64,000 nucleotides of DNA, taken from the NCBI RefSeq assembly GCF_013167455.1, contig NZ_CP038328.1; one strand, written 5' to 3'. The stretch is from Escherichia coli O157:H7. Lineage in GTDB: Bacteria > Pseudomonadota > Gammaproteobacteria > Enterobacterales > Enterobacteriaceae. Position numbers: made by a program. This document shows, piece by piece, positions 50,301-62,300 of the stretch (position 1 is its first letter; every line of letters begins with the position of its first letter).

Positions 50301-53300
50301 TTGATAAAAAAGCAGGCGGAAAATTAATTGTCTCAACGAATGCGCTGGAAGTGAGTGGTACAAACAGTAAAGGCCAATTTAGTATAAAAGATGGTGTGTC
50401 AAAAAATTATGAACTGGATGATGGTTCCGGGCTTATTGTTATGGAGGACACGCAGGCCATTGACACTATCCTCGATGAGCATGCCACTATGCAATCGCTG
50501 GGAAAGGATACTGGTACGAGAGTGCAGGCAAATGCGGTATATGATCTCGGTCGATCAGATCAGAATGGAAGTATAACGTATTCCTCTAAAGCCATCTCTG
50601 AAAATATGGTTATCAACAATGGCCGCGCTAACGTCTGGGCTGGCACAATGGTTAACGTGTCAGTCAGAGGAAATGATGGCATTCTTGAGGTTATGAAGCC
50701 GCAAATAAATTATGCACCCGCAATGTTGGTGGGTAAGGTAGTGGTTTCTGAGGGCGCTTCTTTAAGAACGCATGGTGCCGTGGATACCAGCAAAGCGGAT
50801 GTTTCGCTCGAAAATAGCGCATGGACCATCATTGCCGATATCACTACGACGAACCAAAACACCCGCCTTAACTTAGCCAACCTTGCGATGTCTGGCGCAA
50901 ATGTGATTATGATGGATGAGTCAGTGACTCGTTCATCTGTGACGGCAAGTGCGGAAAATTTCACTACGTTGACCACCAATACCCTGTCGGGAAACGGCAA
51001 TTTTTATATGCGTACCGATATGGCGAATCATCAGAGCGATCAGCTCAACGTCACCGGTCAGGCAACAGGTGATTTCAAAATATTCGTGACGGACACCGGT
51101 GCCAGCCCGGCAGCAGGAGATAGCCTTACACTGGTAACAACGGGCGGCGGTGATGCTGCATTTACGTTGGGCAATGCCGGAGGCGTTGTTGATATCGGTA
51201 CGTATGAATATACCTTGCTGGATAATGGTAACCATAGCTGGAGTCTGGCAGAGAATCGCGCGCAAATTACCCCTTCAACCACTGATGTGCTGAATATGGC
51301 GGCCGCACAACCGCTGGTATTTGATGCAGAACTGGACACCGTGCGTGAGCGTCTTGGTAGCGTAAAAGGCGTTAGTTACGATACGGCGATGTGGAGTTCG
51401 GCAATTAACACCCGCAACAACGTGACCACTGATGCGGGAGCTGGTTTTGAGCAAACATTGACGGGCCTGACGCTCGGTATCGATAGCCGTTTCTCCCGTG
51501 AAGAAAGCAGCACAATTCGCGGCTTGTTCTTTGGTTACTCTCATTCTGATATTGGTTTTGATCGCGGCGGCAAAGGCAATGTCGATAGCTATACCCTGGG
51601 GGCTTATGCCGGTTGGGAGCATCAGAACGGTGCCTATGTTGATGGAGTGGTGAAAGTTGACCGTTTTGCCAACACCATCCATGGCAAGATGAGTAATGGG
51701 GCAACAGCGTTTGGCGATTACAATAGTAACGGCGCGGGTGCTCATGTCGAGAGCGGGTTCCGTTGGGTTGACGGATTGTGGAGTGTTAGACCCTATCTGG
51801 CCTTTACCGGCTTTACCACAGATGGTCAGGACTACACGTTATCAAACGGCATGCGCGCGGATGTGGGAAATACCCGGATATTACGCGCTGAAGCGGGAAC
51901 GGCGGTAAGCTATCACATGGACCTGCAAAACGGTACGACGCTGGAACCCTGGCTGAAAGCCGCCGTGCGTCAGGAATACGCCGATTCTAACCAGGTGAAA
52001 GTTAATGACGATGGCAAATTTAATAATGATGTGGCTGGAACCCGTGGCGTTTATCAGGCTGGGATAAGGTCATCGTTTACCCCGACGTTAAGCGGTCATT
52101 TGTCAGTCAGCTATGGCAATGGCGCAGGGGTAGAATCGCCGTGGAATACCCAGGCGGGTGTGGTCTGGACGTTCTGATAACAGACAATAAACAGGCCCTG
52201 ATGTGTCGCGGTCTGTTTATCGAATTAAATGCAGATATAAAAAAACCAACCTTTACGGTTGGTTTTTTTGGGATTTTTGGTCGGCACGAGAGTAGTTTAA
52301 TTGAGTATGTAACTACATGATTTTAAATAATATGCTTGATTCAACTTTTAAACCGTATAACTAAACGTATAACTAAAATCATTTGCTGAAAAAGTGTACA
52401 ATTTAAATGCGAGTTTTCCTGTGGTAAAAGCTCCAACCGTAACGATGTTCGTTATGGTTGCCTTGATGGTCTGCGTGGTCATTATGACCATTCAGGATTT
52501 GAAGGGTGACGCTTCCGACTTCCTCAAATTGAGGTTTCCGAAAATATCAGCGGGTTAGGCCAGAGTGCAAATTTGCACTCTGGAACAATTCCAACCAGTA
52601 ATCAGCGCAATTTTGCGCTTTGCTTTAAGTTCAGCGAGTAACCGAAGGCGGAATTACGCCCTCGGTACTCACATATGAGAAACGATATTTCTTCCACCGA
52701 TACCCTTTATTTGGGTATCGCGAGTAAGCCCCAAAATCTGGGTGTTACTCTTACTACCCAAACTACGGGTATTTTCCGTAATTTCATGGTCGAGTTGCAG
52801 ATCTGCAACTCACCCACCAGCCAACGCAATTTTGCGCTTTGCTTTAAGTTCAACCAGTTACCGCCGTAACCGCTCCGGCTTCTTCCAGTGGTACGTAATT
52901 TTTGCTTTTTCCCTGTACGTCTGCACGCGGCGACGGTAGGCCAGCATTTCAAGAACGCGGATCCGTATGTTGCGCATATCAACGCCATTAAGTTCTATAC
53001 CATCACGGCGCATCACCTCAGCAACCACACGCGCGTAATTTTCGGCGGTCACGCTGTACGGCTGCGCGGTTTTTTCGTCAGCCTGCTGGCTGATTCCGGC
53101 GACGCGGCGGATTAATCCCAGTATTTCGGCTTCTGTCATTTCTCCACCTGGTCAGCTATTAAACTGCGAAAATTTCGTAATTATCCCGATACGGGGATCA
53201 CCATATCGGGATTGATGCCGGAAAAATCAGCTTTCGCCAGAACGGTGACGGCCTTATCGAGTTTTTGCCATCCGCAATAGGTGATTGCCCTGAACGCTGT

Positions 53301-59300: not shown

Positions 59301-62300
59301 TCAGAATAATCACTATCAGCGCCGTGGTGTGAGGTATTACGGCGCATTGCTATGCAGGACAACACAATGACCGATAAAGAATTGACCAAAACATTATCAC
59401 CGGCACGGAAAAGACGGCGCAGAAAGATAGAGCATGAATCAGAAAGATTCGCACCATGTGCTTTTGCCCTTGAGCAATTCCTTAAAGAGTACAGGGAAAA
59501 GCGCTCATTGCAGGTATGGCAACGAACTGAACCAGACTGATTGCATTGCCCACCAGCCTGATAGCGGCTATCATCCCCGTGCTTATGTTTGGGATCACAT
59601 ACACATAAGGCGCAGCGGGTTAATTGTTCAGAAAGGCGGCTCCATATCGGGGCCGCTTTTTTCGTGTTTGTCATATCTGTGATACCCGTTAAGCAGCCGT
59701 TCCGCGTGCTTCCTCTTCGCGTTCTTTCTGCCAGGACAACACATCATCCTCATACCATCCGCGACGGCGTAAACCAACGCGAAAACCCTGCGGAAATTCT
59801 CCGGCGTTGATCATGCTTTGCAGCGTGCTGTCTGCCTTGATGTGGATAATTTTTTTTACTTCCTGGCGAAAGATAATTTTTCTGATTGCTTCCATCGTGA
59901 TTTACCTTGTGAATCCGGTGTATTCCGGTGACAAATACGGTAAATCATCGGATATGGGTAAAAACAGTTCCCACCGTTTTTAAACGGTATACACCGTTTT
60001 TTATATTGATGATTTGAAATGGAATTATAAAAAAAGCGGCATTTCTGCCGCTTCCAGGATTGTTACCGCCATTTTTTGGGCCTGCCTCCGATCTTCATAG
60101 ATGCCGGACGTACGACCTTATCAATACTTACCGCCAGATTTCTGGAAGCGCCACGGGATACCAGAAAATCTACTACCTGTTTTTTTGATGGGGCCGTCGT
60201 TCTGTCCTCCGGATCGTAGGTTGACCAAAATTCATGCTGAACCATCAGGGCCAGTTGCAGCCCGTCGCAATTGCATCTGATATTTTTTTGCATCTTAACG
60301 GTTTCATGTTTCACGGCCTTGTCGTTAAATTTGATGCAATTATACGACGGTTTTACATGGTTTTCGTAGTTTTTACTGGTTTTCTGTACAGCTACACGGC
60401 TCGGATACCCCTTTTACCACTGGCGAGGGTTACGCCCGTCGCCGCGGCCTCGACAAATTCGCCCCACCAGCGCATCAGCACGATGCGTTTTTCTATGTAG
60501 TTGCTCCGGTTGTATGCCCGTCTAACTTCGTTGGTGTCGACGTGGGCAAGTGCCGCCTCTATTACGTCCGGCTCGAATCCTTCCTCGTTCGCTGCTGTGC
60601 TGAATATGGCGCGTAATCCATGAGACACCAGCACGCCAGCGAATCCCATACGCCGCAATGCTGCGTTAGCTGTCTGGCTGTTCATCGGCTGCTGTGGGTC
60701 TTTCAGACTTGGGAAAACGTAATTGCGGTGGTGGCTGATTGGTTTCATGGCCTCCAGCACCGCCATAGCCTGACCGGAAAGCGGGATAACGTGATCCCTG
60801 CGCATCTTCATGCGTCCGGCAGGTATCGTCCATTGCTTCGCGTCCAGGTTGATTTCATCCCACCGCGTTGATGACGCTTCGGCGGGACGGGTTACGGTCA
60901 GTAACTGCCATTCAATCAGTAATCTGGTCTGCCGTTCTGTTGCCGATACTGATAAAGCCTGCATAAGCTCGGGCAGCTGTTCGGGGCGGATTGTTGGCAT
61001 ATGTTTTTTTACAGGTGAGGGAAACGCCTTACGCACATTCATAGCCGGATTGGCATCAATCAGCCCACTGTTGGCGGCGTAATCCATTACCTCATTAACG
61101 CGCTGTAAAACCCGCTTGAGTGTTTCCAGGTTGCCGCGCTCCTTGATGGGGGTAAGCACTTCAACGAACCTTCGGGCGGTGAGGGTATCTATTGGCGTGT
61201 TGCCGATGAACGGGAATACATATTTATCCAGCGAACGCCAGATGTCTTTAATCGTGTTGGGGGCCAGATTCTGGCTGATTTTCACCTGGTACCATGCCGC
61301 CGCCACATTTTCGAACGTGTTCCCTTGTCTTCGGGCCTCTGTCTCTCTTTTTTGCCTCTCGTGGTCCTGCGGGTCAGTTCCGGCACTGATTAACGTCCTG
61401 TACTCGCTACGGCGTTTTCTGGCATCAGCCAGGGAAACATCTTCAAGCGATCCAAAACTCAGCAATATTCTTTTTTTGTCCGATGGTCGGTAGTAGGAAA
61501 ATCTCCAGAGTTTTGATCCAGACGGTTTGACCAGGAGAAAAAGCCCTCCGCCGTCCTGCAGGGTGTACTCCTTTTGCGCTGGTCTGGCTGCTTTGATCTG
61601 CACTGTGGTTAATGGGTGTGTTTTTCTCGCCATATGTCTATGATTCCACACGAAAAAACAGGGTTTTAGTTATACGGCTTTAGTTATACGCCAGCCCGTA
61701 TAACTAAACGTATAACTAAAAAATCCGGCTGATAGCTTATAAATCCGGTGATGTTCGGTGACTAAAAAACATAAAAAAACCCGCCAATCAAGTGATTAGC
61801 GGGTTATCCCTGTCTTATCCGGTGCTTTCCGGTGATATCCGGTGGGCGATTTGGTCGGCACGAGAGGATTTGAACCTCCGACCCCCGACACCCCATGACG
61901 GTGCGCTACCAGGCTGCGCTACGTGCCGACTCGTGGTTGTTAATACTACCGTTTTCCACACCGATTGCAAGTAAGATATTTCGCTAACTGATTTATAATT
62001 AATCAGTTAGCGATAAAACGCTTCTCGTCTGTCAGTACTTGCAATAACAAACTTAACTGTGGTTTTTCATCTTTCACTCTTTCACCACGTAAGTTGTAAG
62101 TGCGGTATTTACCGTTATTGTTCAGCACCAGCGTCTTTTTCGGGGTGGTAATTGCCAGCGTATCGTTATCCGCTGCGGTAACCCAGTAATGACGGCGTTG
62201 AGGGTTGAACAAATCCTGACCTTGCGAATATTCGCTGGCAGGTGTGCTGACATGTAGCAGGCGTTGCATCAGCGTCGTCATCAGATCGGTATGATCAGTC

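Follow-up and report, generated by a model that had tools for sequence, protein, structure and literature searches.

The 64-kb window analyzed here (64,000 nucleotides of contig NZ_CP038328.1 from Escherichia coli O157:H7) contains, between yejO and yejM, a chromosomal island inserted at the 3' end of the tRNA-Pro gene proL. This gene, a tRNA-Pro(GGG) on the minus strand at 61852-61928, is the sole tRNA gene detected in the region by ARAGORN. An exact 17-bp direct repeat, TTTGGTCGGCACGAGAG, identified with a repeat finder and by direct reading at 52276-52292 and 61850-61866, brackets the island. In E. coli K-12 MG1655 the yejO-proL interval is uninterrupted and represents the empty site; in a junction alignment, the window matches K-12 up to the left repeat and resumes from the right repeat. 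Since the insert starts and stops exactly at the 17-bp repeat, the island measures 9,574 bp. The original prediction, made from the DNA sequence without database searches, had proposed a helper-dependent satellite with these ends and had called for this very comparison with an uninserted E. coli genome, and the alignment bears out the exact boundaries.

Between the two att cores lie 16 open reading frames (ORFs), all of them open and nearly all on the minus strand (Table 1). Their content is that of a phage-inducible chromosomal island (PICI). Core components of these satellites, as defined in the SatelliteFinder study, are an integrase, a regulator of the AlpA, Stl, or MerR type, a primase-replicase, a capsid morphogenesis protein, and a small terminase, and genes for tail, holin, portal, and connector proteins are forbidden (PMC10085698). 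PICIs with all five components are termed Type A, 97% of Type A islands occur in E. coli, and the median PICI comprises 9.5 kb and 15 proteins (PMC10085698). The proL island carries five of the five core components and none of the forbidden genes on 9.57 kb, with approximately 16 genes, and its length falls within the range of about 9 to 15 kb used as a criterion for Gram-negative PICIs. We consider it probable that the segment is an intact Gram-negative PICI of SatelliteFinder Type A that arose as a recombinant version of EcCI11368.1 and EcCI11128, two islands already published for the yejM site.

The analysis recovered every gene that the original prediction had listed from the sequence, including an integrase beside the tRNA gene, an AlpA-like regulator, a divergently transcribed regulator with operator repeats (a YlcI/YnfO-family gene and three copies of TGTCAGCCAC), a Walker A replication protein next to a P4-type iteron origin, and a small terminase without any match to a large-terminase family. 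Its statement that tail, lysis, and large-terminase genes are missing also stands, and the 325-amino-acid capsid homolog with an HK97 fold had been omitted from its list. Among the proposed Icd-like genes, one NF033153 gene is present, and two structured RNAs, C4 and isrK, had been overlooked in the remainder of that stretch. The proposed helper-dependent satellite at tRNA-Pro is supported by the att boundaries, by the gene content, by the vacant K-12 site, and by the island's variable presence: the integrase type was found in 434 of 5,426 complete E. coli genomes and is not near-universal, consistent with the expected variation between strains. The expectation of accessory cargo was not borne out as far as defense genes are concerned, as PADLOC models gave zero matches for the ten island proteins searched.

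Table 1. Features of the proL island (positions within the 64-kb window)
Feature	Position	Strand	Basis
Int-distal att core, 17-bp TTTGGTCGGCACGAGAG, copy of the proL 3' end	52276..52292		Repeat, K-12 alignment
Arm-type integrase sites, int-distal arm, two tandem (C)GTATAACTAAA	52353..52378		Motif search
53-nt repeat, two copies holding the palindrome AGCGCAAAATTGCG, hairpin after each	52592-52644, 52811-52863		Repeat search
orf93 (phrog_1561)	52858..53139	-	PHROG; 85% to last gene of EcCICFT073
HK97-fold major-capsid homolog, 325 aa, PICI 'capsid morphogenesis' component	53181..54158	-	PHROGs, Pfam, TIGRFAM, PGAP; Foldseek
orf53b, 53 aa, between terS and capsid homolog	54139..54300	-	phrog_641 E 1e-6 over TerS C-terminal segment
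Small terminase (TerS), 162 aa, Terminase_2 type	54312..54800	-	phrog_641 E 4e-43; Terminase_2 E 5e-9
orf53a, small conserved ORF	54928..55089	-	ORF call
orf64, small conserved ORF	55093..55287	-	ORF call
orf79 (phrog_1231)	55418..55657	-	PHROG; 85% to gene after pri in EcCICFT073
Predicted origin of replication with eight TGTTCACC iterons, oriented both ways	55710..55930		Motif count
Replicase, 605 aa: TOPRIM-like N-domain, superfamily 3 (SF3) helicase (Walker A GPGGSGKS), Pox_D5 C-domain	55945..57762	-	D5_N, DUF5906, Pox_D5
DUF4222 protein, distant RgdR-family member	57759..58058	-	Pfam; protein comparison
orf106 (phrog_15327)	58065..58385	-	PHROG
Icd-like gene (NF033153), ATG at 58566	58378..58566	-	NCBIfam
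C4/P4-CI-type antisense immunity RNA	58621..58708	-	Rfam 77.6 bits, gathering score 45
isrK/P4-seqA-like leader element, ends in intrinsic terminator 58752-58734	58730..58806	-	Rfam 66 bits, gathering score 50
Divergent control region, three operator-like TGTCAGCCAC repeats	59029..59108		Motif count
YlcI/YnfO-family small regulator, 59 aa, putative repressor	59130..59309	+	PHROG, family profile
orf62, 62 aa (phrog_21027)	59352..59540	+	PHROG
AlpA-like helix-turn-helix (HTH) regulator/excisionase, 68 aa	59689..59895	-	PHROG excisionase/transcriptional regulator E 2.5e-6
orf76, 76 aa, followed by terminator	60063..60293	-	ORF; terminator prediction
Tyrosine integrase, 413 aa, P4-int type	60392..61633	-	NF007246 E 6e-166; Arm-DNA-bind_3, Phage_int_M, Phage_integrase domains
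Arm-type integrase sites, int-proximal arm, four (two inverted, two direct)	61665..61721		Motif search
Int-proximal att core; 15 of 17 bases are the proL 3' end	61850..61866		ARAGORN, repeat, K-12 alignment

The repeat (C)GTATAACTAAA occurs six times in the window, exclusively at the island ends, and this six-copy layout is as expected for the arm-type sites of an integrase with an Arm-DNA-bind_3 domain. The 'att' sequence published for yejM-site PICIs (TTTGTAGTTATACGTTTGTAGTTATACGG, Table S1 of PMC6092414) corresponds to this arm-type repeat, not to the 17-bp crossover core in the tRNA gene, which is in line with the remark that many reference PICIs later needed remapping to tRNA genes (PMC10111431). 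On sequence evidence, a P4-type tyrosine integrase is seen to have recombined the 17-bp core with the 3' end of proL, regenerating the tRNA gene. Just inside the int-proximal core, at 61818-61848, three closely spaced copies of TCCGGTG are present, to which AlpA/excisionase or a host factor might bind. Outside the island, yejO (49586-52177) is an unbroken ORF of 863 codons in this genome; the K-12 copy is split by IS5, and an internal stop is flagged in related genomes of Shiga toxin-producing E. coli (STEC).

Replication, RNA immunity, and control regions

The replicase links the island to satellite phage P4. Its residues 150 to 600 are 51% identical to P4 alpha (E 3e-151), a match that spans the helicase and C-terminal part of alpha, and the primase domain of alpha is absent from the island protein. 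Directly 3' of the replicase gene, in the most AT-rich stretch of the island, lies the predicted origin. The octamer TGTTCACC occurs nine times in the window compared to 1.7 expected occurrences, with eight copies in this origin. A literature search for the octamer returned primer noise only; its identity was settled from the P4 GenBank annotation, where it is the 'ori type 1 repeat' of both ori and crr. About 70 bp of the island origin align to P4 ori with 77% identity. P4 splits its origin into ori and crr, in contrast to the island, where the origin directly follows the replicase gene.

The early leftward operon has the order leader, icd, orf106, DUF4222, replicase, and its leader contains the C4 and isrK elements, both detected by Rfam on the operon strand. 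Within isrK, ACUGAAG and UUGGCGU are the complements of the C4 segments CUUCAGU and ACGCCAA. A second pair of target sequences, UUGGCGU (58616-58610) and ACACUGA (58586-58580), complements the C4 segments ACGCCAA and UCAGUGU, and ACACUGA abuts and overlaps the icd Shine-Dalgarno sequence GAGGAGG (58575-58581). In the P1 immI region and in P4, two target pairs are arranged such that the downstream pair lies at the icd ribosome-binding site. The C4 loop pairings and the isrK terminator of the island amount to the same arrangement as in P1 immI and P4, and the leader layout and predicted loop complementarity conform to C4/CI antisense immunity of the P1/P7/P4 type. In the P4 genome, the same two Rfam hits appear in the same order, isrK and then C4, with C4 falling in the old 'cI' ORF. 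EcCI11368.1 likewise has both elements; in EcCICFT073 and in the island of E. coli O111:H11 88-19539, C4 and isrK stayed below the Rfam gathering score. Matches to both profiles in several Gram-negative PICIs are already in print (PMC10111431).

A mechanically called ORF of 210 codons (58378-59010) and its Pfam Phage_ASH hit (E 1e-15) coincide with the DNA encoding C4 and isrK (58621-58806). We take neither the ORF nor the hit as firm evidence of a protein. The 'ash family protein' pseudogenes called by PGAP in relatives sit on the same C4/isrK-coding DNA. The ash protein family may in part represent translation of conserved RNA genes, as was once the case with the P4 'cI' ORF.

Upstream of the leader, a predicted leftward sigma-70-like promoter (59068-59040) is overlapped by the operator-like TGTCAGCCAC repeats of the divergent control region; this motif was found four times in the whole window, compared to 0.13 expected. 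Orthologs of the AlpA-like protein, 87 to 99% identical, are named HTH regulators by PGAP. The palindromes ACGGTGTATACCGT and AACGGTGGGAACTGTT at 59962-60001, upstream of alpA, are kept among proL-type islands but have not been retained in EcCICFT073; the inducing signal from the helper could act on them. A virulence-regulator role like that of RgdR was considered for the DUF4222 protein and rejected. Its identity to C1493 is only 33%, and the RGD motif is replaced by PGA; we therefore do not claim regulation of the locus of enterocyte effacement.

Packaging module and candidate helper phages

The late module comprises terS, orf53b, and the capsid homolog gene, and the same triad of terS, a small ORF, and a capsid gene closes comparable islands running from int to helicase in Serratia and Hafnia. 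A sequence search of the capsid homolog against the PDB found nothing, and a fold search was therefore needed. A structure modeled from a 36-sequence alignment (predicted local distance difference test score 89.4, predicted template modeling score 0.85) matched, with Foldseek probability 1.0, the capsid proteins of Bxb1, 80alpha/SaPI1, and HK97 and a SaPIbov5 procapsid entry containing Ccm. At its C-terminus (53181-53240), the homolog is approximately 15 residues longer than the 307-amino-acid PGAP proteins of relatives, apparently due to a frame difference near the 3' end of the gene; with the extra residues, the alignment to the helper capsid protein extends further. The position of orf53b, which resembles the C-terminal segment of TerS, is kept in E. 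coli, Hafnia, and Serratia islands, and at a guess its product is a packaging-interference factor. Downstream of orf93, the two 53-nt repeats, each trailed by a strong hairpin, belong to a variable cassette of about 600 bp that is missing from EcCI11368.1-type islands. Exact look-ups of the small ORFs matched E. coli and Shigella records throughout, all labeled 'hypothetical' except for clearly spurious names. None of the 16 ORFs matched portal, protease, large-terminase, tail, or lysis families in the PHROG, NCBIfam, Pfam, and TIGRFAM profiles.

To name candidate helpers, we ran tblastn against 50,697 phage records. The best full-length matches of TerS (46 to 47% identity, 96% coverage) were in Shiga toxin (Stx) 1a-, 2a-, and 2c-converting phages, PPompW prophages, and phage Lys8385Vzw; three short 'Escherichia phage vB_EcoS' records (18 to 24 kb) match equally well. 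The capsid homolog finds the same Stx/PPompW phages with 24 to 25% identity over 94% of its length, aligning to the C-terminal capsid part of a 645-amino-acid protease-capsid fusion encoded by this group. Salmonella, Burkholderia, Moraxella, and Rhizobium phages match the capsid homolog equally or slightly better (approximately 26% identity, stronger E-values). Our helper assignment is thus based on the overlap of the TerS and capsid hit lists in the Stx/PPompW group, not on this group topping the capsid list. The packaging genes of Stx/PPompW-type phages are ordered terS, terL, protease-capsid, portal. Compared to the phage protein, the island TerS is conserved in the N-terminal DNA-binding part and especially in the C-terminal segment, with a nonconserved middle, a pattern that suits a satellite TerS retaining contact with the helper's large terminase.

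Island and candidate helpers also meet in the same genomes. Strain RM8385 carries a proL island with the terS-capsid module, and its genome also holds a prophage that matches Lys8385Vzw at 100% in the packaging genes. In 88-19539, the genome nearest to the island, the helper-type module occurs seven times, and several further genomes with the island are among the matches listed for this module. Co-occurrence was looked at by example rather than statistically, and since 1,257 of the 5,426 complete E. coli genomes contain a helper-type module, such co-residence is weak evidence. On balance, lambdoid prophages of enterohemorrhagic E. coli (EHEC), including Stx1a-, Stx2a-, and Stx2c-converting and PPompW types, are the most likely helpers.

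Matches to lambda cosN in the island were at chance level only, and for the P2/P4 cos the island contained no match even with three mismatches allowed, while blastn gave no hit with the ends of P4. The sole near-match in the window, 16 of 19 positions at 20890-20908, lies inside rcsC and was judged a chance occurrence. Compared with PDB sequences, TerS weakly matched SF6/SPP1-type small terminases and not RppC, giving no indication of an Rpp homolog. As neither lambda cosN, P2 cos, nor an Rpp homolog was found, packaging via the island's own TerS is the most likely route.

We propose the following course of events. In the quiescent state, the YlcI/YnfO repressor and the C4-like RNA would hold the replication operon off, as suggested by EcCICFT073 and by P1 and P4. 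A helper phage would turn on alpA, as in EcCICFT073, leading to excision and operon activation, and the excised island would replicate from its own origin. The island TerS might then bring the helper's large terminase to island DNA for packaging into helper-made particles, and the capsid homolog might remodel or poison helper capsid assembly, like Ccm in SaPIbov5. The helper would supply the portal, protease, and large terminase as well as tails and lysis functions. SaPIbov5 with its Ccm and the TerS-encoding Staphylococcus aureus pathogenicity islands (SaPIs) follow the same logic, in which an HK97-fold capsid homolog, an own small terminase, or both divert helper packaging. They differ in their Gram-positive hosts and Stl-type repression and have no sequence relationship to the proL island beyond the fold.

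Relatives, rival readings, and implications

Four PICIs have been listed at the 'yejM-luxR' site, EcCI25922, EcCIED1a.1, EcCI11128, and EcCI11368.1 (Table S1, Fillol-Salom et al. 2018, PMC6092414). EcCI11368.1 (O26:H11 11368) and EcCI11128 (O111:H- 11128) occupy the same site beside proL and yejM as the island described here. By megablast, the EcCI11368.1 region covers 65% of our island at 97.5% identity. Shared parts are the integrase, orf76, alpA, orf62, the isrK-C4 leader, and icd (99.7 to 99.9% DNA identity), the terS/orf53b/capsid module (approximately 97.6%), and the terminal 266 bp with arm sites. The two islands differ in replication: EcCI11368.1 has a RepA/AAA_25 helicase instead of the alpha-like SF3 helicase with TGTTCACC iterons, and only the N-terminal domain of approximately 135 amino acids is common to both proteins. 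The iterons are absent from the 07_3636 island, which is near-identical to EcCI11368.1. In addition, the orf93 cassette is extra in our island and missing from EcCI11368.1.

In megablast comparisons with relatives, the segments match different islands. The int-to-icd segment (58383-61866) shares 99.9% identity with the strain 07_3636 island; the segment with the late module, origin, replicase, DUF4222, and orf106 (53148-58419) is 97% identical to E. coli O111:H11 88-19539; and the orf93 cassette is 89% identical to EcCICFT073. Judged by these identities, the island is a mosaic of two known subtypes. More than 80% of it is covered in only 1 of the 5,426 complete genomes, and the terS-capsid module was found in 221. 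Among the matches listed, the strains are mostly O26, O103, O111, and O157 of bovine or human origin.

EcCICFT073, located between roxA and phoQ in CFT073, is an experimentally characterized E. coli PICI (Fillol-Salom 2018, 2019) with the same gene order: int, alpA, divergent orf62 and ylcI, icd, further genes, DUF4222, pri, iteron origin, small ORFs, late module, and orf93. Protein identities between the two islands are 52% for YlcI, 100% for orf62, 49% for Icd, 33% for DUF4222 (RgdR/C1493), 48% for Pri, and 85% each for orf79 and orf93. Because orf62 is 100% identical whereas its neighbors ylcI and icd reach only about 50%, very local recombination between distant PICIs is indicated. The integrases, by contrast, are only 24% identical, and the late modules are built differently. 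In EcCICFT073, genes for a lambda-E-like capsid protein and a D-like decoration protein accompany RppA, through which the helper's own TerS is redirected to the PICI cos, whereas the proL island has its own TerS, no Rpp homolog detectable in the comparison with PDB sequences, and no lambda cosN.

Several points weigh against an intact, functional PICI. The literature holds no observation that we could find of excision, replication, packaging, or transfer for any yejM-site PICI, and none exists for this copy. No pac or cos site was identified in the island. The AlpA-like regulator is the weakest of the five components, with a weak Pfam Phage_AlpA match (E 0.31), and the capsid homolog is a candidate Ccm-like size-redirection or interference protein by analogy only. 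What points to these helpers is homology together with co-residence in genomes of STEC, and such genomes are rich in prophages of this kind anyway.

The first of these points also fits a domesticated, no-longer-mobile remnant that keeps its satellite genes and is neither inducible nor packaged in present hosts. The loss of orf93 and the calling of pseudogenes in the leader among relatives, and the near-clonality of the terS-capsid module (95 to 99% identity across the 221 genomes), would agree with such a state. Against it stand the 16 open ORFs, the identical att cores, the six intact arm sites, and the conservation of the same architecture in other genera. Furthermore, islands that are near-identical elsewhere have exchanged their replication modules, which implies recent recombination among active elements. 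We regard a fixed remnant as unlikely.

The original prediction had called the island both P4-like and PICI-type. The second label holds, given the five core parts, and the first applies to the replication and immunity modules and not to the family. A P4-family satellite would depend on a P2-like helper, redirect P2 capsid size by Sid and Psu, and be packaged via a P2-type cos. In common with P4, the island has the helicase and origin-binding part of alpha, the type 1 iterons, a replicase operon in which the seqA/isrK element precedes the CI (C4) RNA in P4 order, and an integrase of P4 type (34% identity to P4 Int by tblastn) that uses the 3' end of a tRNA gene as its target, with paired tandem arm sites reminiscent of the paired 12-bp arm repeats on both sides of the core in P4 attP. 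However, P4-like satellites are defined by seven components (psu, delta, sid, alpA, epsilon, alpha, and int), of which the SatelliteFinder model allows at most two to be missing (PMC10085698), and the island lacks four. Neither sid, psu, delta, nor epsilon was found: tblastn of all island proteins against P4 gave Int and alpha only, and no island protein had a PHROG or NCBIfam match to the psu, delta, sid, or epsilon families. P4 cos and plasmid-maintenance genes have no counterpart either, and part of alpha, its primase, is missing. TerS and the HK97-fold capsid homolog are related to lambdoid phages instead, so that the helper-exploitation module appears aimed at these phages and that of P4 at P2-like phages. 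Because Int and alpha are the only proteins matched in P4 and a P2/P4 cos is missing, we do not place the island in the P4 family, membership of which we consider very improbable. A capsid-forming PICI, which builds its own capsids and steals only tails from its helper, is suggested by the capsid homolog and small terminase and can be dismissed, as portal, prohead protease, head-tail adaptor, connector, large terminase, and HNH genes are all missing and 9.6 kb leaves no room for them.

The island is a real, intact satellite, and as a new mosaic it joins a group of E. coli PICIs that, like their insertion site, has been published before. Since EcCI11368.1 and EcCI11128 are already on record at the yejM site and E. 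coli is known to harbor thousands of Type A PICIs, one more entry adds little by itself. What the island adds is a single element that displays replication and RNA-immunity modules common to E. coli PICIs and P4, with modules exchanged as cassettes, as seen in the alpha-type and RepA-type helicases behind a common N-domain. With modules shared in this way, the line that has been drawn between PICIs and the P4 family becomes less sharp.

The terminase and capsid homologs point to a group of helpers that is concrete and can be tested, the lambdoid EHEC prophages of Stx-converting and related types, and in our literature search no paper was found on a PICI parasitizing these phages. We tentatively suggest, as a possibility we hold to be less likely than its opposite, that the yejM/proL PICI lineage is a dedicated parasite of lambdoid EHEC prophages, including Stx1a-, Stx2a-, and Stx2c-converting phages, which would use together its TerS with a conserved C-terminus for docking to the terminase, orf53b as a mimic of the TerS C-terminal segment that blocks the helper TerS, and the Ccm-like capsid homolog. 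If so, carriage of the island would lower the yield of Stx phages and alter their spread and toxin release in O26, O103, O111, and O157 strains. A satellite depressing Stx-phage production would bear on virulence and on the spread of toxin genes.

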